Source: an uncultured Pseudomonadota bacterium (lineage in GTDB: Bacteria; Pseudomonadota; Alphaproteobacteria; RF32; CAG-239). Taken from it: a stretch of DNA of 64,000 nt. The notes beneath the pieces were generated by a model. It was given only the letters and a program-made list of their open reading frames with translations, searched no databases and was not told the origin of the DNA. Positions 41,415-50,868 of this stretch are shown here, one piece after another. Made by a program: the position numbers and the translations under genes. The stretch lies in the NCBI GenBank assembly GCA_949298065.1, contig CASFUZ010000001.1, positions 101,473 to 165,472 of the forward strand, read 5' to 3'. Numbering within the stretch: the stretch's first letter is position 1; each line of letters begins with the position of its first letter.

Positions 41415-42242
41415 TTATCTATCAATCTTTTCCAAAAGCACCAGCATCCTTTGTTGAAGAAGGAAAGCTTCTTCTTTAGCGGCTTCCGCATAGTATCTGC
41501 CAGTATCAGCATAAATGATACCTCGGGAAGAATTAACAATCAACCCGCAGTTGTCGTTCATACCATATTCAGCAACTTTTTCCAAACTACCGCCCTGAGC
41601 ACCGACACCGGGAACAAGCAAGAAGTGGTTAGGAACAATTTTGCGAATATCTGCCAACATTTCTGCCTGAGTTGCACCGACAACATACATCATCTTGTTC
41701 TCATCGGCCCATTGTTGAGAAGTTTTCAAAACCTTCTCAAACAACATTTCACCATTGGCATCTTCCATCAACTCAAAGTCTTCAGCGCCTTTGTTTGAGG
41801 TCAAAGCCAACAGAATAACCCATTTTCCGTTATATTTCAGGAAAGGTTCAACACTATCCATCCCCATATAAGGTGCAACGGTAACCGCATCTGCTTTGAG
41901 TGTGGAGAACATAGCTTTGGCATAACGCTCACTTGTGTTTCCGATATCACCGCGCTTGGCATCTGCAATAACCAGAATCTCCGGATAATTTTGATGAATA
42001 TAATCCACCGTCTTTTTCAAGCTCATCAAGCCGTAAGCAAAACTTTCTTCATAAAATGCCAGATTCGGCTTGAACGCCACCGCAAATTCGGCCGTTGCAT
42101 CAATAATTCCCTTATTAAACGCAAAGATAGGATCTTCCTCACCCATTAAGAACTGAGGAATTTTTTGAATATCCGTATCCAGTCCCACACACAAAAAAGA
42201 TTTTTTAGCAAAAATCTGATTCACTAAATCTAAATAATTCAT
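41415..42242 (-). CDS. pyrF: Orotidine-5'-phosphate decarboxylase (subfamily 2)
   Basis: [34 protein letters not shown] and NSSRGI. Confidence 0.96.
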
Positions 42243-42384
42243 AAAACAAACGTTTTAAGGATTAAACATAAAAAATCTATAATCACAAAATACAGGGACA
42301 CTTATAACGCTAGTTTACAGATATTTCAAGATTTTTGTACAAATATATTATATTCCTCGGATCAAATAACATTGATTTAAAAAC

Positions 42385-42414
42385 AGAAAAACGACCCTAA
42401 AAGGTCGTTTTTCT
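42385..42414 (-). terminator. Original tRNA-Ser(TGA) terminator, displaced by the integrated element
   Basis: AGAAAAACGACC-CTAAAA-GGTCGTTTTTCT immediately outside the duplicated tRNA 3' end. Confidence 0.8.
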
Positions 42415-42416
42415 TT

Positions 42417-42437
42417 AATTGGCGGAGAGGCAGAGAT
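42417..42437. repeat. att site, distal copy (duplicated tRNA 3' end)
   Basis: AATTGGCGGAGAGGCAGAGAT identical to 49981-50001. Confidence 0.95.
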
Positions 42438-42619
42438 AATTTGCCAACGCCATTATAACACATTGTAAAACCCAAATATTTTTATTTTTCATTTTTTTAA
42501 ATATGCTATTTTGTAGCACGATTCTGTAATACCCTAGAGTCTAAAAAAATTCAATATAAAATTTCCTAATTACAAAATTTAATGAAAAACAAATAAATAA
42601 AATTAGATGAATTTTATTT

Positions 42620-42649
42620 TTGCGTTGGTCTCAACGTATATGATATTAT
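42620..42649 (+). promoter_or_regulatory. Putative sigma70 promoter for the structured non-coding region
   Basis: TTGCGT-N18-TATTAT with extended -10 TGn; palindrome CGTTG-GTCT-CAACG overlaps the -35/spacer. Confidence 0.5.
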
Positions 42650-42655
42650 TCAAAT

Positions 42656-42965
42656 ATATACCAATTACAAAAGTTATATTTTGTATCACGAAAACGGGGA
42701 AACAGGCCTTTTGACAGGCACCCTCACGCAGGGAACAAACTGAAAACCTATGACGACTAATCCATTGGTATTAGCACCGCAAAATAACCCCTCCGAAGGC
42801 GGCTGGCGGAATATAAATAGGGCACGGCTGATGATGTCAGTTAGAAGTCGGGGCAATATCTGTGCTCATTGATAACCCCAGCATTTAAAATTTGGTTCTT
42901 GTTCGGATTTTAAATGTGCCAACCGGAAAAGCAGGTGGAAGGTTCGCATTGGCGGTGTGCGGATT
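42656..42965 (+). ncRNA. Candidate large structured non-coding RNA of unknown class
   Basis: No ORF of 60 aa or more; ~47% GC by hand count (42721-42960) in an AT-rich element; at least 8 stems, with G-U pairs favouring the + strand. Confidence 0.55.
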
Positions 42966-43205
42966 TTAAGGAAACATACTTAATATAACCAAAACAAGAA
43001 AGCAAACTCAACGGATATGCTATACTCTTTTTTACCCTCTGTTTATGGGTAAAAAGAGCAAATCTAACGGATATACTATGAAAAATAAATTATCAAAAAA
43101 ATAAATTAAGAAAAAAAATTAAATGAGCAATCAAAGATTGCGAAATTTTGCCTGAACGAGCAAAGCGAGTTTAGGCATTAAAATAATTATAAAAAAGGAG
43201 AATAA

Positions 43206-43676
43206 ATGAATTTAGAGAAAACCGCCATAAATGACCGCATAGAAGCCATAATGAAGGATAATGAGTCAATCAACAGCAAATTAAAATACACCTCACCAGC
43301 GAACGAAAAAAAGGCATTACAAGATAAAAAAGCCAAAAACAATAACGAATTAAGAAAAGAAAGAACAAAACGCTATAATTTAGAACAAGAAGATGCCGAA
43401 TTTATTAGAGAATGCTGTCAATATCTTCAAAAATTAGGGATAGTAAAAAGCCAAAGGCAATTCAGCCAGCAATTTTTGAGTAAAAGCCAAGATTATTTGG
43501 GTATGTTGATTTGCGAAAGAAGACAACCACCAATTAACATATTGCACCGCCTTGTCCAAAATCTGATTCAAATTCAGCCAATTTATGAAGACAAATACAC
43601 CATCAACAATTATTTAGATATTCTCATTAACCGAGGTAATCAAATAATCACAAAAAAATTGCTTAAATATCTATAA
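43206..43676 (+). CDS. Hypothetical protein: N-terminal coiled coil plus DUF6626-like domain
   Basis: AAGGAG RBS; LGIVKSQRQFSQQFLSKSQDYLGMLICERRQP resembles DUF6626 proteins (recalled, not searched). Confidence 0.6.
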   Translation: MNLEKTAINDRIEAIMKDNESINSKLKYTSPANEKKALQDKKAKNNNELRKERTKRYNLEQEDAEFIRECCQYLQKLGIVKSQRQFSQQFLSKSQDYLGMLICERRQPPINILHRLVQNLIQIQPIYEDKYTINNYLDILINRGNQIITKKLLKYL

Positions 43677-43745
43677 ATTAACCCTACTTTTAAGTTTCGT
43701 TAATTGATAAATTTTGATTTTTATAAAAAAAATTAAGGATTAAAA

Positions 43746-43931
43746 ATGGAAATAATCAGAGCATATCAGCAACTAATGACATACAATAAAAAATATTCAT
43801 ACATCCAGAGCGATGGTAAAATTGTGTTTAATAATAATTGGGCTTGGATTGTAGTATTCCAAGCCCAAAATAAAAGAAATTATGCTATTGTAAAATATGA
43901 TAGCGGAAAATATACTGTAATTGAAGTTTAA
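43746..43931 (+). CDS. Small hypothetical protein
   Basis: 61 aa, AAGGA RBS, abuts the convergent ORF. Confidence 0.55.
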   Translation: MEIIRAYQQLMTYNKKYSYIQSDGKIVFNNNWAWIVVFQAQNKRNYAIVKYDSGKYTVIEV

Positions 43932-44303
43932 TTATTTCCAATTTGGAATGCAATGTGAATTTGCAAATCTTTCTGTCAAAATACTATTAACACGTGATAT
44001 AATATCCAATCTAATTGCAATCAATTCAGCATTTGCTCTTCCATTAAAATTTAAAGCATCTATTTCTCTTTGAGTAAGATTTAAGTTTTGCCGAATATGT
44101 GATTTTACATCTTTTTTTAAACAATCATAATATGGCATATTTGATAATTTTGAAAGTTCATAATCAACAACATTATCTATTAAAAGGTGTGCAGAACTAT
44201 TATTTTGTGAAAAACATAATAGAACAATAACACTCCCTATAATCGGCAATATATATTTAAGGATATTATTAGAATAACCTGATTTTCTTGTAGTAGGTAG
44301 CAT
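43932..44303 (-). CDS. Hypothetical membrane-anchored or exported protein
   Basis: ATG 44303 overlaps the upstream TAA (TAATG); hydrophobic segment ILPIIGSVIVLLCF. Confidence 0.65.
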   Translation of the reverse strand: MLPTTRKSGYSNNILKYILPIIGSVIVLLCFSQNNSSAHLLIDNVVDYELSKLSNMPYYDCLKKDVKSHIRQNLNLTQREIDALNFNGRANAELIAIRLDIISRVNSILTERFANSHCIPNWK

Positions 44304-45079
44304 TATATGAAAAACCAAAGATTGACACCTAAAAGCCCTAATAAGGTTAGTAAAGCAAAGAACCCACCAAAGCAAATTCCAAATAGCAACTCTATAATTC
44401 CAACTTCTTTATCTTTACATATTGATAATAATAACTTTGCGACAAACGCAAAGAGAGATGCTGGAACAAAACAACCAAATAAGTATCCAGGAACAACTAT
44501 AAGTCCACGAACAATAAGAATTACTGCTAAAATTGAAAGAACAATCATTACCCATTCTGAAACACTAAACTCATCAGAAGATTCTTCAATTTTATTTTTA
44601 TGATTTATTAATAACTTAATCCTTTTTTCTATTTCATTTATTTTATATATTAAATAAATTCCTATTTCTCCCTCTGATAAAACTTTAATATTTTCCCAAT
44701 CAATTAGATTTATAGTCGGAACAATGTTTTTATTGATAGAACATTCTGTTGGAATAATTTCAGGAGGTCTTTTATTATTACGATTAATTGGGGCTATACC
44801 ATTATACATAAAATTACCATTCATTATTTTATTTTCAATAAATGATGTTTTATTCCAATCAATTTCTATGTCAGTATTAGATTTATTTTCAATCTTAATG
44901 TTGAAAAGAATATTGTTTTTAACAGTGAAAACAATGTCAATGTTTTCATCAGAATATTTTGCTATCTGAGAATCTATATCATTTAAATATTCTTCTCGTT
45001 TTTGATTAAATTCTTCTTCTGTAATAACTCCTTTTTCTTTTAGTTCGTTAAGTTTTTCTAATTCTTCTGCTGTAATCAT
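44303..45079 (-). CDS. SHOCT-domain protein with three C-terminal TM helices
   Basis: N-terminal ELEKLNELKEKGVITEEEFNQKREEYL (SHOCT), hydrophobic C-terminus. Confidence 0.8.
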   Translation of the reverse strand: MITAEELEKLNELKEKGVITEEEFNQKREEYLNDIDSQIAKYSDENIDIVFTVKNNILFNIKIENKSNTDIEIDWNKTSFIENKIMNGNFMYNGIAPINRNNKRPPEIIPTECSINKNIVPTINLIDWENIKVLSEGEIGIYLIYKINEIEKRIKLLINHKNKIEESSDEFSVSEWVMIVLSILAVILIVRGLIVVPGYLFGCFVPASLFAFVAKLLLSICKDKEVGIIELLFGICFGGFFALLTLLGLLGVNLWFFI

Positions 45080-45094
45080 TTTTTACACCTCAAA

Positions 45095-45538
45095 CTACAA
45101 ATTCTTTTCAATATAATCAAATATCTTATTTGTAATTTTTTTCTTTTCTCCCCAATCAAAAACTTGAAAAGCAATACATTTACCAAATATAGAAACAGAT
45201 ATAGATTGTTTTGATTTTAATATCTGAATTAGCATTGTTTGACCATAAGATAGCCATGTTTGAGGGGTATCAAACATAATGATACCTTTATTTTTATTTG
45301 AATTAGAAATTGTATAATTCAATTCTTTTATTACATTTTGAGCAGAATTAAATATTTTATCATAGTCGGCATTAAACAATCTCTCTCCTTGTTTAGGAAG
45401 TTGAGGTATATCTACAATATCAGATTCAATGTCTGATTCAAAACCTAAAATTTGCTTCTTTTTTTCATTAAACTGTTCTTCTGTAATAATACCCTTTTCT
45501 TTTAGTTCAAAAAGTTTTTCAAGTTCCTTTGTATCCAT
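45095..45538 (-). CDS. SHOCT-domain protein
   Basis: N-terminal ELEKLFELKEKGIITEEQFNEKKKQIL; C-terminal domain with a DWG motif. Confidence 0.8.
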   Translation of the reverse strand: MDTKELEKLFELKEKGIITEEQFNEKKKQILGFESDIESDIVDIPQLPKQGERLFNADYDKIFNSAQNVIKELNYTISNSNKNKGIIMFDTPQTWLSYGQTMLIQILKSKQSISVSIFGKCIAFQVFDWGEKKKITNKIFDYIEKNL

Positions 45539-45542
45539 TATT

Positions 45543-45893
45543 TCAATCCTTATAAGTGGTTAAACCTAAATCTTTTCTCATTAATGAAATCATTTTTTCA
45601 ATATCTGCATTATTAAGATTTTTATGTTTCAAAAAATCTTTTGCCATAATTCCGATTTGTGGATTTTTAGCAAATAAACAAATATTATATGTTTGTATTT
45701 CTAAATCTTTTTTAGAAATTAAAGATTTTAGATAATTCCAATATCTATCCCTTAATTTTCGCTCTCTAATAAGTGATAATTCTCTATATAAAGCAATATG
45801 AGCCGCAATTACTGATAAAGTTACAGAAATAATAATGCTTATACATAGCATTACTAGATTGCCATAAGTTATATTTTCAAACCCTATATTCAT
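45543..45893 (-). CDS. Hypothetical single-TM protein
   Basis: Start moved to ATG 45893 (AGGT RBS); one hydrophobic helix. Confidence 0.65.
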   Translation of the reverse strand: MNIGFENITYGNLVMLCISIIISVTLSVIAAHIALYRELSLIRERKLRDRYWNYLKSLISKKDLEIQTYNICLFAKNPQIGIMAKDFLKHKNLNNADIEKMISLMRKDLGLTTYKD

Positions 45894-46126
45894 AAAAACC
45901 TGCGAAAAACTGAACGGTTTTCTTCCACAAAAATATACGGGTAAAACAAATTCACAGGGAAATTTAAGAAAATCCAAGCCCCACAAGGGATTAAAGGCAA
46001 AAAAATAAATTTATTTGACTTTTAAAAAGATAGATATAGTATGGAAAAGAATTGTTCCTTTATTTTCAATCATATATAAGTATTTAAAACTTAATCTTTT
46101 TAATAAATAAATTAAAAGGATTAGTT

Positions 46127-46723
46127 ATGATTTACGCATATATTAGAATATCAACTGACTTACAACATCAAGAAAATCAAAAATTTGAAATAGAAAACTT
46201 TGCTAAAACAAATAATATCAATATTGATAAATGGATTATGGAAACAATATCATCAAAAAAGCCATTAGAAGAAAGAAAATTAGGAAAAATATTAAGAAAA
46301 TTAAAACAAGATGATATTTTAATAACTTCTGAAATTTCAAGATTAGGCAGAAATTTATTACAAATTATGTATATACTTCATCACTGTATGAATGTTGGTT
46401 GTCAGATATGGACGATTAAAGATAATTATAGATTGGGAACAGATATACAGTCGAAGGTATTGGCTTTTGCTTTTGGATTAAGTGCAGAAATAGAAAGAGA
46501 TTTAATATCACAAAGAACTAAACAATGTTTAGCACGATTAAAAGCTGATGGAAAACATATTGGAAGACCAATAGGAAGAAAAAATAAAATAACTAAATTA
46601 TCAGGAAAAGAAGATTTAATTGATAAATTACTATCACAAAACATCAAGAAAACTAAAATTGCTAAAATGCTAAATGTCGATTATTCAACATTTTATAAAT
46701 TCTTAAAACAAAAGGCGGTATAA
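46127..46723 (+). CDS. Serine recombinase, Mpi (master DNA invertase)-like family
   Basis: YIRIST catalytic Ser, SEISRLGR, WTIKDNYRLGTDIQSKVLAFAFGLSAEIERDLISQRTK typical of Bacteroides Mpi-type enzymes; C-terminal HTH. Confidence 0.85.
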   Translation: MIYAYIRISTDLQHQENQKFEIENFAKTNNINIDKWIMETISSKKPLEERKLGKILRKLKQDDILITSEISRLGRNLLQIMYILHHCMNVGCQIWTIKDNYRLGTDIQSKVLAFAFGLSAEIERDLISQRTKQCLARLKADGKHIGRPIGRKNKITKLSGKEDLIDKLLSQNIKKTKIAKMLNVDYSTFYKFLKQKAV

Positions 46724-46730
46724 ATCCGCC

Positions 46731-47279
46731 TTATTTTTCTATATAGCTATATACAGTTGGTCTTGTTATTTCAAATTTTCTCGCAATTTCAGCAACGGCA
46801 ACACCATTTTTATATAAATTATTTAATTCTTTTACTTGTTCGTCTGATAATTTATTTTTACCACCTTTATATTTTCCTTTCGCTTTTGCCAACGCCACAC
46901 CTTCTCTAACTCTATCATTGATTAAAGAACGCTCCAAAGAACTAACAGCAGCTAACATTGTCATCATCATTTCTTGATAAGGGTCTTTTTTATCAGGAGA
47001 GAAAGTTAAATTTTCTTTATGAAACTTAATTGTTGCTCCAATATTGTTTATTTCTTCAACAATATTTAACAAATCACGAGTATTTCTCGCCAATCTATCC
47101 ATAGAATGAACATTAACAACATCACCGGCACGCAAATTTGACAACATTGCTTCTAATTGAGGACGCTCTCTATTTTTACCAGATAATTTATCCTCATATT
47201 CTCTATCACAAGGAACATCAATTAACTGTCTTTCAGTAGATTGGATTAAAGTTGAAACTCTTTTATAGTTAAAAATCAT
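46731..47279 (-). CDS. Serine resolvase (Tn3/Tn21 TnpR-like)
   Basis: YKRVST, SGKNRERPQL, VHSMDRLARN, LERSLI, C-terminal HTH (IARKFEITRPTVY). Confidence 0.92.
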   Translation of the reverse strand: MIFNYKRVSTLIQSTERQLIDVPCDREYEDKLSGKNRERPQLEAMLSNLRAGDVVNVHSMDRLARNTRDLLNIVEEINNIGATIKFHKENLTFSPDKKDPYQEMMMTMLAAVSSLERSLINDRVREGVALAKAKGKYKGGKNKLSDEQVKELNNLYKNGVAVAEIARKFEITRPTVYSYIEK

Positions 47280-47296
47280 TTTTAAAATTCCTTAAA

Positions 47297-47415
47297 TGTA
47301 AAATCAATATCTTTAATATGACTTTACAATATACAAAAAGTGTAAAATTGTCAAGTATTTTATGTTAGATTTTACACTTTTTTATAATTAAATTTGATTA
47401 TAGTTGAATTTTACA
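47297..47415. promoter_or_regulatory. Putative three-subsite res site of the resolvase
   Basis: TGTAAAAT-type inverted repeats: 47297-47328, perfect 14-bp IR 47335-47348/47369-47382, degenerate third site ending 47415. Confidence 0.7.
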
Positions 47416-47583
47416 AGTATTTAAGCCACTTCCAAACAATCAGACATAACAAAAAAGCATAATAAAACTATAATATAACTATTCTTTAACCATATATGTG
47501 TATAAAACTAATACAATAATTGACATTAAAAATATAATATATCCATAATTTAACATCATTAACACAAATACGGAGAATAAAAA

Positions 47584-48036
47584 ATGGCTGAAAATTCTAA
47601 CTCAAACAATAAAAAAACAACATTAAACTTTACTGGTCTTGATATGAATGTTGAAAAAGCAAATGTATTTAACGCAAAAGTTAATTCAATCAAGGCAAAA
47701 ATCGCAGATAGCATTCAAAAAAATCTCAATTACGAAAACAGTATCGAAAACAAATCAGCTCCCGCATCGCAATTATCACCATCTATGCGTATTTTGAAGG
47801 ATAGCGGAGATTACACTGTAATTACCTTGCGTTGTGGTGCTTATCCAATTTTTAAGAACACTACTAAAAAAAGCGAATATACGCACACTAAAATTTTGTC
47901 TTCATTAAAATCAATGCTTGAAGAAGGACAATTTGACGAGGAAATAAAGGCATATGCCAAGAAAAAACGCACAAGAAAATCAAACGAAGATGAAACAGAA
48001 GAAAATTCATCTAAAAACAAAACAAAGAAAAAATAA
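47584..48036 (+). CDS. Hypothetical basic protein (DUF6641-like C-terminus)
   Basis: GGAG RBS; ITLRCGAYPI...LKSMLEEGQFDEEI resembles the DUF6641 'GELD' ending (recalled, not searched); K/R-rich tail. Confidence 0.6.
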   Translation: MAENSNSNNKKTTLNFTGLDMNVEKANVFNAKVNSIKAKIADSIQKNLNYENSIENKSAPASQLSPSMRILKDSGDYTVITLRCGAYPIFKNTTKKSEYTHTKILSSLKSMLEEGQFDEEIKAYAKKKRTRKSNEDETEENSSKNKTKKK

Positions 48037-48058
48037 TCTATAATAATGGGAGAGTTAA

Positions 48059-49897
48059 TTAACTCTCCTTTTTCTTTGTCTTCTTTTTTGATAATTCATA
48101 ATCACCAGTTGAAAAATCTTTTTGAGATGGGTCATATGCAAGTTTGTGTAATATTTGTTTTAAACATGGATAATCTATTTTCTTTAACTCGCGATTAAGC
48201 AATGAAATATTGATGTTTTTACCATAAATTGATTGCCCTATACCTTTATTAGCCCACCCACCAAGAGCATTTTGGACTTCTGTTGATATTTTTTTTGCAA
48301 TAGCATGTTCTTCAAAACAATATCTAAAACTATGAAATACAATTTTATTTGCTGTTATACCGAGTTTATCAAGATAACGAGCAAACCAATGACCGACAGC
48401 ACCTGAAAATTGATTTTTTTTGGTATATTCAATAGTGTAAAAAATCCACTCTTTTTTATTTGTTTTTAATTTTTTTACAAAATCAATGAAACCTAAAAAT
48501 ATAAGAGCCGGGTGTATAGGCACAATTCTTTTAGAATGCTTGTTTTTTAATGATTGTTTGGGATGTGTGTCACAAATATTAAAACACCATATGCCTTTTA
48601 CTTTGATAATATCTTCCACTCGTAATTGGCAAATCTCGTTAATCCGAGCACCTGAAAATAAGGCAATTAAAGGAACCCAGAACTTTACAAATTCATAACG
48701 GCTATATCTATTGGGATAGGTTTCTGGATTGAATATCTTTTTTAAATCTTTATCAGAAAATCCAATGCGTGCAGGATCTTTATTTAATAATGGCGTTGTA
48801 ATATTTTTCTTAAAATCATTCGGTATAATGCCTTCATCAACTGCAAATTTTAATAATTCTTGAAAAGATATTAAATGAGCTTTGATTGTTTTTAGAGAGA
48901 TACATTTTTCATTATCAATCGGAAGTAAAATACTATTCAACCTCTTGTTCGGATATAAAAATTGCCATCTTTTGGGCACTCTATGAATATCAATAGAAAT
49001 TCTTTTGCAATCTTCTGCCGTTATATCGTCAATACAATCTTTTTCAAGAAGGGCGAAAATAGTTTTTAAATGTGTTCTTTTAGAATCTACAGAACTTTGT
49101 TTTATTTTTTTACGTAAATTATGAACCGTTATCATTCGGTCAAATAAAGTAGTCCAAAGAGTTTTTATTTTTCGTTGTTTTTCTATTCTCTTATTAGCTA
49201 TGTCTTGGCAAGTGGTTGTTAATTTTCTGATTAGCGGATTTATATTAGCATACTTAACCGCAGTATCATCAGTATTATGAATATCATTTATCAATTTTTC
49301 ATTATAACTCTCTACCTGCTGAAACTTATTTACATATGATTTAAACCAATCAGCGGTTTCCAAATTACGATATGTAGATGGAGATGTTGGGATATTGGTT
49401 AATCCACGCATAATTTTTTCTAAAACATTTTTTAATGTAATATGCGTGTCAGGTTGTTGATAGAGCCATAATAGATAAGAGTTGAGGTATTTTCCTGCAC
49501 AAAATGTTATATCACCACTAGTGAAAACAGAAACCTCTCTAAAATCTGCTTTACCTTTTTCAATATCATTAAAATTATCTTCACAAAACTTTTGCACTTC
49601 TTCCAATCTATGAATTAAAAGAGCGTCAATATCAGCATCATCCATCGTAATGCCGAAAGGGTGTGTTCTCTTGCTAATTTTCAATGCAACAACCTTTAAA
49701 AAATCAATAAATTTATCCATTGCGAGGGATTCTTTGGGATATTGTTTTATCGCCGTATAATAATCCCTTGTGCCAAGAGAATAAATCAACTCTTTGCGAA
49801 GTGCAAGAGGTTGCAAAATTCTGGGGATAGCAACCCTAATATAGAATACATGAAGCCGACGAGTTAGACGGGGATATCTTGACCGATTCTGTAACAC
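48059..49897 (-). CDS. Tyrosine integrase with N-terminal DUF6538-type arm-binding domain
   Basis: FYIRVAIP...KELIYSLGTRD N-terminus; catalytic R (SGARINEI), K (SLKN), HxxR (FHSFR), W (LGGW), Y (SIYG); start codon uncertain. Confidence 0.93.
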   Translation of the reverse strand: MLQNRSRYPRLTRRLHVFYIRVAIPRILQPLALRKELIYSLGTRDYYTAIKQYPKESLAMDKFIDFLKVVALKISKRTHPFGITMDDADIDALLIHRLEEVQKFCEDNFNDIEKGKADFREVSVFTSGDITFCAGKYLNSYLLWLYQQPDTHITLKNVLEKIMRGLTNIPTSPSTYRNLETADWFKSYVNKFQQVESYNEKLINDIHNTDDTAVKYANINPLIRKLTTTCQDIANKRIEKQRKIKTLWTTLFDRMITVHNLRKKIKQSSVDSKRTHLKTIFALLEKDCIDDITAEDCKRISIDIHRVPKRWQFLYPNKRLNSILLPIDNEKCISLKTIKAHLISFQELLKFAVDEGIIPNDFKKNITTPLLNKDPARIGFSDKDLKKIFNPETYPNRYSRYEFVKFWVPLIALFSGARINEICQLRVEDIIKVKGIWCFNICDTHPKQSLKNKHSKRIVPIHPALIFLGFIDFVKKLKTNKKEWIFYTIEYTKKNQFSGAVGHWFARYLDKLGITANKIVFHSFRYCFEEHAIAKKISTEVQNALGGWANKGIGQSIYGKNINISLLNRELKKIDYPCLKQILHKLAYDPSQKDFSTGDYELSKKKTKKKES

Positions 49898-49944
49898 TTT
49901 GCTGTAACACCTCTGATTTTGGGTGTTTTAAATGTGTTTTACTT

Positions 49945-49975
49945 AAAAAAATAACCCGTTATTTCAACGGGTTAT
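49945..49975 (-). terminator. Element-supplied terminator between the tRNA and the integrase
   Basis: ATAACCCGTT-N5-AACGGGTTAT followed by a T run on the minus strand. Confidence 0.65.
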
Positions 49976-49983
49976 CAATGAAT

Positions 49984-50073
49984 TGGCGGAGAGGCAGAGA
50001 TTCGAACTCTGGGAGGGCTCGCACCCTCGACGGTTTTCAAGACCGCTGCATTAAACCACTCTGCCACCTCTCC
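49984..50073 (-). tRNA. tRNA-Ser(TGA)
   Basis: Reverse complement GGAGAGGTGGCAGAGTGG...GCGGTCT-TGA-AAACCGT...variable arm...AGTTCGAATCT...CTCTCCGCCA. Confidence 0.97.
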
Positions 50074-50233
50074 ATAATCATTAACGGCAATCCGTGTTTG
50101 CATAGCTTTTTTAATCAATTCGTCTTTAAACGTCAAGCATTATTTTTGATTATTGATAATAAAAATCTTCTTTATTGACTTATTGTCAAAAAAGAGCTAT
50201 TTTTTGTCCAAACAACTATTAAAAACATATATT

Positions 50234-50494
50234 ATGGAAAAGAAACATATCATTGAGCTGATAAACAAATATGCTCAATATGTAGAAAAAAATCCATCAG
50301 ACAGATATTATCGCCAAGTATGGATGCTTTGTTGTTCCGCTTTTTTCACCAAAGCAACAATTCCTGCAAAAGTTTTGCTGGAAAACATTGAAAAATTGCA
50401 AAACAATGCAACCATACTAAATCGACGACGAATATTCAGAGATGATTTAATAACGCTAAAAAGCTTTGTTGAAGACATAATTGCCAACAACTAA
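50234..50494 (+). CDS. Small hypothetical protein
   Basis: 86 aa from ATG 50234, followed by a terminator-like hairpin at ~50500-50541. Confidence 0.55.
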   Translation: MEKKHIIELINKYAQYVEKNPSDRYYRQVWMLCCSAFFTKATIPAKVLLENIEKLQNNATILNRRRIFRDDLITLKSFVEDIIANN

Positions 50495-50554
50495 CATCAA
50501 AAAAACAGGCCGTAATTAAAAAATTACCGCCTGTTTTTTTTGTATTTATTTTGT

Positions 50555-50868
50555 GCGTCCCGCTAATTCTGTATTAGTCAGCCACAGAGCCAACCACCTC
50601 TCCTCCTGTGCCAAACCAAAAATCGGGATATGTGCGACGAATAATAAGAATTTAGGGCAAAAACACCGCAGCGTACATAAACGTACGTGAGGATGTTTGC
50701 GTCCCGCTAATTCTGTATTAGTCGGCCACAGAGCCAACCACCTCTCCTCCTGTGCCAAACCGAAAATCGGGATATGTGCGGCGAATAATAAGAATTTAGG
50801 GCAAAAACACCGCAGCGTACATAAGCGTCCCGCTAATTCTGTATTAGTCGCCCACAGAGCCCGATTTT
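50555..50868. repeat. Tandem array of an RPE-1-like palindromic element (periods 144 and 126 bp)
   Basis: GCGTCCCGCTAATTCTGTATTAGTC at 50555, 50699 and 50825; core ACCGCAGCGTACATAAACGTACGTGAGGAT (50665-50694). Confidence 0.85.

Follow-up and report, generated by a model that had tools for sequence, protein, structure and literature searches.

The window analysed here, a 64-kb stretch of genomic DNA (contig CASFUZ010000001.1) to which all position numbers refer, comes from an uncultured alphaproteobacterium of the gut and contains a 7.6-kb island (42417-50001) inserted in a tRNA-Ser(UGA) gene. The left end of this island encodes a large RNA of ~420 nt with very strong covariation and no Rfam match, and this RNA sits in the slot which is taken in most sister elements by the gene of a minimal HUH endonuclease, a natural module swap. 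The island as such is of a known kind, a tRNA-integrating, tycheposon-like island. New are the ~420-nt RNA, the exchange of RNA and HUH gene in one slot and a probable invertible promoter beside an invertase gene; the RNA and its exchange with HUH most deserve attention. As the best overall explanation of the element and of the role of its RNA, for which we estimate a probability of about 55%, we propose that the excised element would be maintained or propagated with the help of a left-end module existing in a protein and in an RNA version. L, G, g and C followed by a number denote loci, genomes, genera and contigs of the element's own genome, respectively.

The left-end module: structured RNA or HUH-like gene

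Between the left attachment (att) core and the DUF6626 gene lie 768 bp (42438-43205) without a credible open reading frame (ORF). This agrees with the ~750 bp of non-coding DNA described in an earlier note on this DNA, and the structured RNA which that note had suspected as a part of the element is borne out by covariation in 20 distinct homologues. The region consists of three parts:

42438..42654, plus strand: AT-rich left arm with the motif ATTACAAAATTTAAT (42569-42583), an operator-like inverted repeat and a promoter-like site
42655..43075, plus strand: structured RNA core of ~420 nt with at least 17 helices, a 5' pseudoknot and a terminal hairpin (43025-43058)
43076..43205, plus strand: A-rich linker with two conserved hairpins, before the ribosome-binding site of DUF6626

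The inverted repeat of the left arm (AAATAAAATT at 42595-42604 and AATTTTATTT at 42610-42619) is followed by a promoter-like TTGCGT-N18-TATTAT with TG (42620-42649); the roles of the two as operator and promoter are putative, being deduced from the letters. The conserved 5' end of the RNA lies ~7 nt after the -10 element, and its 5' ACCAAU pairs with the hairpin loop AUUGGU in an H-type pseudoknot. In the linker, the hairpins GCAATC/GATTGC (43127-43141) and TGCCTGAAC../..GTTTAGGCA (~43153-43183) both show compensatory changes and are retained in homologues with a different next gene.

Searches with nhmmer and BLAST found copies of the RNA with identities as low as 77%. They occur in 24 of the 282 family genomes and in 10 of 23 genera, always one per genome; a covariance model (R1) run across the taxonomic order added no genome to those of BLAST. 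Five of the copies are close ones extending over 42417-43210, and the copy of L024, 89% identical, differs from the window mainly by paired changes in hairpins. For the covariation analysis 20 distinct sequences covering 42655-43073 were used. Of the 91 pairs predicted by RNAalifold, 35 show compensatory changes; with the pseudoknot added there are 93 pairs and 99.0% of the cells are paired. Double-sided changes occur in 39 of these 93 pairs, in comparison to 22.3±2.6 in column shuffles (none out of 500 reaches the observed value) and to 2-8 in a slid control in which the partners were shifted by 1-3 columns. About ten pairs are invariant or nearly invariant G-U pairs, and because these would be A-C on the other strand, the plus strand must be the functional one. 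Variable columns are distributed over the three positions modulo 3 as 62/73/77, showing no codon periodicity, and a reading frame is not conserved in the homologues. Folds of the single sequence (42620-43060) are unremarkable (z of -0.53 and -0.68), therefore the structure is revealed only by the comparison of homologues.

That this is a real and new structured RNA we regard as practically certain. In Rfam 15 (42000-50500, E≤1) nothing except the tRNA is matched, apart from chance matches elsewhere, and six divergent homologues gave only a partial GEBRO match of 19.9 bits in comparison to a gathering score of 284.7. At the sensitivities used, the phage and plasmid collections gave no match to the RNA, its invariant 23-mer is not found in IMG/VR, and BLAST against 400 genomes of the class returns only chance-level matches of 21-32 nt. 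The literature on structured RNA, integrase and island yielded, in the accessible parts of the sources, only general surveys, whose motif lists were not compared by sequence.

Two direct units of ~22 nt (43002-43023 and 43058-43079) flank the terminal hairpin of the RNA. They contain a hexamer which varies in concert across the homologues (GGATAT, GGAAAT, TTGGAT, GAAAAT, CTGAAAT), a covariation of identity and not of complementarity; the reverse complement of this hexamer was not found in the element. The idea that the RNA acts as a guide was rejected, as the window and L024 share integrase and att site, yet their variable 5' hairpin differs.

A scan for DUF6626 in species-representative genomes yielded 12 related loci with 85-99% identity, whose gene order was determined by tblastn and blastn. 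In eight of these a HUH-like ORF of 136 aa (orf136) is located directly upstream of DUF6626, and in the other four the RNA is found there. In a larger tally of this slot, comprising 30 DUF6626 loci from 201 family genomes, the following was found upstream of DUF6626:

HUH-like ORF, same strand and adjacent: 15 loci
HUH-like ORF, divergent: 1 locus
RNA: 3 loci
neither module: 11 loci
both modules: 0 loci

Conversely, none of 19 contexts centred on the RNA contains a HUH ORF. The idea of the earlier note of an element family without a Rep protein therefore needs correction, as the position of the RNA is taken by a HUH endonuclease in most of the related loci (8 of 12) and, among the DUF6626 loci, in 16 of 30. 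Counted by genomes, HUH is present in 37 and the RNA in 24 out of 282; seven genomes have both, on different elements. The sequences in front of both modules share one layout, made up of the motif ATTACAAAATTTAAT, the operator-like repeat AAATAAAAT(T)/(A)ATTTTATTT in inverted orientation and a promoter-like TTGnnn-N17/18-TAnnAT (the nhmmer matches being partial), and because of this RNA and HUH gene are read as alternative first parts of one transcription unit.

The assignment of orf136 is based on its motifs, its predicted fold and the DNA in front of the gene. In 24 sequences the motifs TFNPH, PHLHI (with H66 and H68) and Y115-x-x-K-E occur in the order of the Rep class; H68 is invariant, while H66 and Y115 are conserved in at least 90% of the sequences. 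In the AlphaFold2 model (predicted local distance difference test, pLDDT, 89.4) the HxH is placed on a strand (66-72) and the tyrosine on the next helix (106-119). The VIA Z scores are 7.8 for SIRV1 ORF119, 7.7 for RAYT, 7.5 for MVM NS1, 7.1 for a geminivirus Rep, 6.8 for AAV5 Rep and 6.2 for RepB. No family of Pfam, PHROGs or PADLOC matches orf136, and it is a rare protein, with 30 clusters at E≤0.001 among 1.84 billion representatives. Upstream of the gene two overlapping and mutually exclusive hairpins are found, each with compensatory changes between clades (L025:9400-9450, with equivalents in L028, L043 and L049; e.g. GCTGATGATT/AATCATCAGC and GGGAATATC/GATATTCCC). By analogy, overlapping hairpins would be the kind of DNA such nucleases act on, and we infer that the orf136 of the sibling elements is a minimal nicking enzyme or rolling-circle initiator. 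Compared with SIRV1 ORF119, RAYT, IS608 TnpA, pMV158 RepB and the Rep proteins of parvoviruses and geminiviruses, domain size, HxH strand, tyrosine helix and upstream hairpins are the same; different from these minimal HUH endonucleases, orf136 matches no sequence family, and it is absent from the element of the window.

Proposed role of the RNA and alternative explanations

In the explanation favoured here, Int would excise the element and integrate it at the tRNA core. Res, acting on a res site of three subsites, would keep excised or replicated circles monomeric and repress its own gene, and the Mpi-family invertase would flip the 146-bp promoter segment, which would read into the cargo operon on the minus strand in one state (ON, that of L024) and towards mpi in the other (OFF, that of the window). 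These roles of Int, Res and invertase are assigned on the grounds of established knowledge of their families. The left-end module would be transcribed from the conserved promoter behind the operator-like repeat, ahead of DUF6626 and orf61, and have two mutually exclusive forms. One form would consist of the overlapping hairpins and the 136-aa HUH protein, initiating rolling-circle replication or transfer of the excised circle. In the other form, that of the window, the pseudoknotted ~420-nt RNA would maintain or propagate the excised circle; in the simplest case it would mark or prime an origin, with DUF6626 as its partner. The circle may replicate without a Rep protein. That the RNA functionally replaces the HUH initiator can only be proposed tentatively, from position and mutual exclusion. 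Still more doubtful, and in our opinion rather unlikely, is the specific idea of a new class of large RNAs which substitutes for the HUH initiator and, with DUF6626 as partner, would let the excised element initiate its replication or its transfer, be it as primer, as origin RNA or even as DNA-acting ribozyme. Protein-initiated and RNA-initiated versions of one mobile-element backbone would then be interchangeable.

Several observations weigh against this explanation. Of the 24 genomes with the RNA, 17 have no HUH, and 11 of the 30 DUF6626 loci have neither module. An element with DUF6626 thus need not have one of the two, and this makes an essential slot less likely; elements of the RNA type evidently persist without a resident HUH. 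As for orf136, its fold match is only middling: unrelated ferredoxin-like folds reach the same Z and are scattered among the eight HUH nucleases with Z of 6.2-7.8, the E values of Foldseek are only ~0.007-0.03 (IS608 TnpA ~0.008), and the nicking site is undefined. The Logan contigs of four DNA runs end at 42417/42418 and at 50001-50011, i.e. at the att cores, so that junctions are invisible there; neither an attP joint nor a strand-switch joint at the inverton is listed for these runs. A circular (attP) form, an excess in copy number and a transcript were not observed, and no RNA run is listed among the 20 runs which contain the element. The summed depth of the element exceeds that of its flanks; this was not used, because the element occurs in several hosts and contig depth is not copy number. 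Furthermore, all promoter assignments are consensus matches only, and the inversion is known from one flipped copy, that of L024, whose mpi is frameshifted. Finally, in loci with DUF6626 directly behind it, the RNA has the physical position of a 5' leader; it contains an invariant CCUCC, which could mask a ribosome-binding site, and a purely regulatory role fits equally well.

Such a role leads to the best of the alternatives, a serious one which we consider possible without believing it probable: the RNA would act in cis as a leader, comparable to a riboswitch or forming an RNA-based immunity region, and set the expression of DUF6626 and orf61 and thereby excision. It would be unrelated to the function of HUH, whose gene would be an optional first cistron. 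The promoter of the RNA has the same position as that of the HUH-DUF6626 operon, the RNA ends ~130 nt before the start of DUF6626, and in at least 12 of the 19 RNA contexts DUF6626 follows within ~1.3 kb on the same strand. The two conserved hairpins just ahead of the ribosome-binding site and the CCUCC in the core also count in its favour. However, in L092, L104 and L105 the next gene is located on the other strand and the RNA is still fully conserved, which argues for an RNA that is not only a leader. The pseudoknotted core of ~420 nt with its many invariant unpaired stretches also far exceeds known leaders, and the strict exclusion of HUH (both modules in none of the 30 and none of the 19 loci) is left unexplained. 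Our reading is that of a stand-alone functional RNA.

Rather improbable, in our estimate, is that the elements of the RNA type are non-autonomous. After their excision, a sibling of the HUH type or a resident type IV secretion system would mobilise or replicate them in trans, and the RNA region would be, or cover, a cis site (an origin of transfer, oriT, or of replication). The element's own genome does contain a partial module of the HUH type on C6:59339-60458 (L006:1071-2193), ~600 bp from the contig end, with orf136, a DUF6626 protein of 52% and an orf61 of 74% identity; an integrase end belonging to it was not located. It may also encode a type IV secretion system, given a VirB4/TrbE homologue (PF03135, 51 bits; C2:277018-277551) within an open frame of 815 aa. 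HUH is found in seven of the 24 RNA genomes where ~3 would be expected if the two were independent, related genomes not being independent samples. On the other hand, neither sibling nor VirB4 homologue is necessary for the element to be present, and the remaining 17 of these genomes show no HUH match, nor do three of the five examined directly. The paired-hairpin motif of the HUH-type elements is absent from the element of the window, and covariation with G-U pairs favours an RNA over a DNA site.

The element is hardly a phage satellite (similar to phage-inducible chromosomal islands, PICIs, or to P4) packaged by a helper: it is small and tRNA-integrated, its relatives carry defence-type cargo, and some tycheposons are described as PICI-like in the accessible part of 10.1101/2020.12.28.424599, but no ORF belongs to a capsid, terminase, primase or phage-regulator family, IMG/VR contains neither a DUF6626 or HUH relative nor the invariant 23-mer, phage records have no match to the RNA, and the host genome lacks a PF05065 capsid gene which a helper prophage or gene transfer agent would bring. 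An immobile remnant left by the decay of a prophage or of some larger element is just as hard to see in it, even though it brings no gene for its replication or transfer, as all backbone ORFs are open, bounded relatives are equal in size, the empty site is exact, and copies of 96-100% identity exist in other genera.

Insertion site, backbone and cargo

The remaining features of the island are, from left to right:

42417..42437, no strand: attL core (21 bp), a repeat of the 3' end of tRNA-Ser
43206..43676, plus strand: DUF6626 protein, 156 aa (PF20331, 34.7 bits, cut-off 27.3)
43746..43931, plus strand: orf61, 61 aa, following DUF6626; no family match
43932..45890, minus strand: cargo operon of a 115-aa membrane protein (likely start 45890), SHOCT proteins of 147 aa and 258 aa and a 147-aa ORF
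45912..46057, no strand: probable invertible segment of 146 bp between cargo operon and mpi, with left inverted repeat GAACGGTTTTCTTCC (45912-45926) and right inverted repeat GGAAAAGAATTGTTC (46043-46057)
46127..46723, plus strand: Mpi-family small serine invertase, 198 aa (NF009949, PF00239), serine in MIYAYIRISTDLQ
46731..47279, minus strand: resolvase, 182 aa (PF00239, 114.5 bits; HTH_7, 28.7 bits), serine in MIFNYKRVSTLIQ
47297..47415, no strand: res-like site, a cluster of half-sites overlapping a promoter-like site which faces the resolvase gene
47584..48036, plus strand: orf150, conserved and basic-tailed, between res and int; no match in Pfam
48059..49897, minus strand: tyrosine integrase, 612 aa, with N-terminal DUF6538 (PF00589, PF20172, phrog_1), inward-facing beside an intact tRNA
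49981..50001, no strand: attR core, within tRNA-Ser(tga) at 49984-50073 (minus strand)

The island is bounded by the 21-bp direct repeat AATTGGCGGAGAGGCAGAGAT, whose copies at 42417-42437 and 49981-50001 are identical, the right one being the 3' end of tRNA-Ser(tga). The G+C content is ~0.40-0.47 in the flanks versus 0.22-0.36 between the repeats. In G001, a genome of the same genus with a flank of 98% identity, the pyrF flank is joined straight to tRNA-Ser, and the alignments of flank and tRNA share an overlap of 20 nt, the core, which defines the exact empty attB. Since the pyrF flank of G001 runs directly into the tRNA, the segment 42417-50001 is a site-specific insertion with a known empty site. 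Host of the element is a genome of 1.62 Mb in 36 contigs with ~41% G+C, and the runs which contain the element are mostly chicken-gut metagenomes. We conclude that the island at 42417-50001 is intact and was transferred recently, that it belongs to a family of tRNA-targeting integrative elements with a compact size of 6-8 kb, and that it is very probably a mobile, tycheposon-like element.

Just past tRNA-Ser and a 113-aa ORF, 144-bp tandem repeats are found at 50554-50861, with two full units 97% alike and a 37-nt start of a third. G001 has one unit less, and 126 bp are missing here in a contig of run X1; the final ~45 nt of the unit also occur on C2, C7, C12 and C19.

In agreement with the earlier note, the island thus has its att repeat, and most of the genes which the note had named are confirmed as well: integrase, resolvase with res site, Mpi-like invertase, a DUF6626-like ORF above the PF20331 cut-off and a cargo block on the opposite strand. 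Also the statement that no Rep, relaxase or capsid gene is recognisable stands, as scans of all ORFs against Pfam, PHROGs, NCBIfam and PADLOC gave no match to Rep, relaxase, primase, capsid or terminase families. Only the label DUF6641-like for 47584-48036 could not be confirmed, because PF20346, and Pfam in general, give no match even at E≤5; an Atlas lead to DUF6641 is sub-threshold (score 0.83, in a cluster with 58% DUF6641 members).

The integrase scores 40.4 bits with PF00589 (cut-off 27.1) and is the sole copy in its genome. Its catalytic motifs are ARINE (R417), HSFRY (H522 and R525), GGWA (W548) and SIYGK (Y558), which we take to be the catalytic residues according to the R..K..HxxR..W/H..Y pattern, so that H522-x-x-R525 forms its HxxR part.

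In the two serine recombinases the motifs RIST and RVST can be read. Upstream of the resolvase gene, the res-like site shows the layout TGTAAAAT-N16-ACTTTACA (47297-47328), TGTAAAAT-N20-ATTTTACA (47341-47376) and an extra ATTTTACA (47408-47415). Four TGTAAAAT half-sites, in the orientations + + - -, thus lie within 119 bp. In total TGTAAAAT occurs nine times in the window, a number reached by 24 out of 100 shuffles; the signal is therefore the clustering and not the total. The promoter-like site inside this region (47354-47326, minus strand) is a consensus match only. Another clade of the resolvase (~41% identity) has GTAAYATT-type repeats at the same place, and a half-site motif which switches with the resolvase clade is the behaviour expected of a true res site; resolution activity is predicted. 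In resolvase-res systems of the Tn3 and gamma-delta type and in the resolution of plasmid multimers, the gene of a small serine recombinase is preceded by inverted half-sites in three unequal subsites, which overlap its own promoter. The half-site arrangement is the same here; different are the lack of a transposase, the integrative nature of the island and the clade-specific TGTAAAAT.

Copies of orf150 with 35-99% identity are found at the same position in nine of the 12 related loci and in L033, and it is a candidate for a directionality or partition factor. Right after DUF6626, copies of orf61 with 74-95% identity occur in all 12 related loci and in the paralogue on C6. The AlphaFold2 model of DUF6626 (pLDDT 91.9) is all-helical, consisting of an N-terminal helical hairpin and a C-terminal helical domain. 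Searches for its function returned a best E of 1.3 for the profile against PDB sequences, a best E of 0.65 in Foldseek and DUF6626 clusters alone in Atlas, and the literature search found no paper containing 'DUF6626' or 'DUF6538'. An XRE/CUT-like helix-turn-helix is not claimed, the impression having come from one weak row (1wh6, E 1.9) and from reading the sequence.

The cargo block as a whole extends over 43932-45986. SHOCT domains (PF09851) begin the proteins at 44303-45079 and 45095-45538, both on the minus strand, the 258-aa protein having membrane segments at its C-terminus; 43932-44375 and 45543-45986 match no family. PADLOC finds no defence family in the cargo of the window. Relatives have other genes in place of the block, and one contig of run X3 lacks it (joint 43931>45999). 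The cargo of the relatives is mostly of the defence type. Around the RNA it includes, according to Pfam, Type I restriction-modification (HsdM, HsdS, RhuM), a HaeIII-type pair and Type IIG/ISP, and also Abi_2, a KAP NTPase, a SocA/Panacea protein and ankyrin proteins. In the distant relatives the neighbourhood of the RNA always comprises small serine recombinases, together with integrases of several kinds.

The invertase passes the equivalog cut-off of NF009949 (291.7 versus 272 bits, over 196 of 203 positions); with PF00239 it scores 101 bits, and with HTH_7 20.2 bits, below the cut-off of 23.8. The segment between its gene and the cargo operon contains a promoter-like TTGACT-N16-TAGTAT (46015-46042, plus strand), which points at mpi in the window. 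In L024 the outer flanks are unchanged and the enclosed segment aligns only as reverse complement, with breaks at the GAAC/GTTC cores. The promoter segment points at mpi in the window and in five other loci with this invertase and at the cargo genes in L024, i.e. one out of seven is flipped. The geometry is exactly that of an invertase-controlled promoter, and 45912-46057 is probably an inverton. One flip in seven is modest evidence, and catalysis by this invertase is a prediction. No copy other than L024:12058-12655 has the promoter segment turned towards the cargo; the frameshift which splits the mpi gene of L024 may represent a switch locked in the ON state or an assembly error.

In Bacteroides, the 'master' invertase Mpi switches surface and membrane genes by means of short segments which carry a promoter and are flanked by inverted repeats. 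The invertase of the window resembles Mpi in its NF009949 match and in the promoter-bearing segment; it differs in that it is part of a mobile island of an alphaproteobacterium, that one adjacent inverton is seen and, apparently, in the sequence of the repeats.

Outside the element, C4:122507-133626 and C10:119-694 encode paralogues, comprising a resolvase of 71% identity, an Mpi-like invertase of 54% (two copies) and a SHOCT N-terminus, which suggest further islands or targets of the invertase.

The element family and related systems

The backbone of the related loci has the order DUF6626-orf61-[variable cargo on the opposite strand]-[Mpi, optional]-Res-orf150-Int. This order is complete in seven of the 12 loci, and the other five are cut by contig ends or partial; the recurrent, poorly described gene family proposed in the earlier note is therefore real. 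The types of integrases are ~33% identical to one another and each is located beside a different tRNA (Ser, Trp, Gln, Met). In six of the seven loci with a tRNA beside the integrase, 17-21 bp of the tRNA 3' end are repeated at the opposite end of the element, and 6,056-8,316 bp lie between the repeats; in the seventh, L020, the contig breaks off ~260 bp upstream of the HUH gene. The earlier note had considered that homologous elements might be much larger and this one a deletion remnant. As the tRNA-bounded relatives have these sizes, the element is compact by nature.

The left end with the RNA is 99-100% identical in the genera g39 and g19, the genus of the window being g1. The backbone of L019 (= G257, g39) shares 96-97% identity with that of the window over stretches of 1.5 and 4.2 kb, and the flanks of the two are unrelated. 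Integrases, cargo and left-end modules are shown to assort independently of the rest of the backbone and, because the integrases do so, the tRNA targets assort independently as well. The hosts are uncultured gut Alphaproteobacteria with small genomes (~1.6 Mb).

According to the accessible part of their description (10.1101/2020.12.28.424599), tycheposons carry at one end a tRNA-specific integrase which faces inward. A small replication module may be present at either end, and the cargo serves adaptation or interference with phages; the hosts are Prochlorococcus and other marine bacteria with streamlined genomes and few classical mobile elements. As far as this part of the description goes, the family described here is similar in having the inward integrase at the tRNA 3' end, partial tRNA copies, a module at the far end and cargo in between, in the small serine recombinases, which are among the tycheposon gene labels, and in the small genomes of the hosts. 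It differs in the host, a gut alphaproteobacterium, in the DUF6538 N-terminus of the integrase, in the resolvase/res pair and the invertase with its inverton, and in the far-end module, which is HUH or structured RNA plus DUF6626 and not primase/helicase. No ORF of the window belongs to the families of primase and helicase, the hallmark replication genes of tycheposons. Because these hallmark genes differ and the integrase lineage was not compared, we call the element tycheposon-like and do not file it as a member. With this family the idea of tycheposons is extended from the oceans to the animal gut. Few plasmids or prophages are recognisable in small-genome gut Alphaproteobacteria, and the family shows an exchange of defence and surface genes on cassettes of 6-8 kb which move between genera via tRNA sites. 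As we read it, 7.6 kb would pack three levels of site-specific recombination: integration, resolution of multimers and a phase-variable cargo promoter.

Integrative mobilizable elements, mobilizable genomic islands and the NBUs of Bacteroides are small integrase islands which rely on others for transfer, some having only an oriT or a small relaxase. In contrast, neither relaxase nor oriT is recognisable in the window, and the HUH protein of the siblings has 136 aa and the order of Rep proteins (HUH before Y).

Large structured RNAs of mobile elements such as GOLLD, ROOL and HEARO, and the primer RNA II of ColE1, are known. With GOLLD, ROOL, HEARO and GEBRO the RNA described here shares its size, a high G+C content against the AT-rich background of the mobile element, and many conserved helices together with unpaired stretches. 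If it primes replication, it would resemble RNA II of ColE1 in serving a circle without a Rep protein; different from RNA II, an antisense partner, an origin or a feature of a DNA-RNA hybrid was not identified here.

A metagenome scan for relatives of DUF6626 gave three loci only, and the whole contigs L032 and L022 have no terminal overlap, thus no circle is inferred. In L104 (G130:C3:7300-19600) the genes next to the RNA are those of an Mpi-like invertase, on the opposite strand, and of a second serine recombinase, and then come genes of a glycosyltransferase, an epimerase and a nucleotidyl-transferase, which looks like a phase-variable polysaccharide locus. L094 (G049:C94:1-10800) consists of a full tRNA-Thr, ~210 bp, the RNA with three small ORFs of no named family and then peptidase M24, PrmA, YebC and RuvC; integrase and recombinase are absent, and it may be a mini-island or a relic. 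Many DUF6626 proteins which are 87-96% identical to that of the window are encoded on contigs whose longest size is 8.9-9.1 kb (e.g. 9112, 9108, 9127, 9096, 9045 and 8995), and these contigs might represent elements assembled alone.

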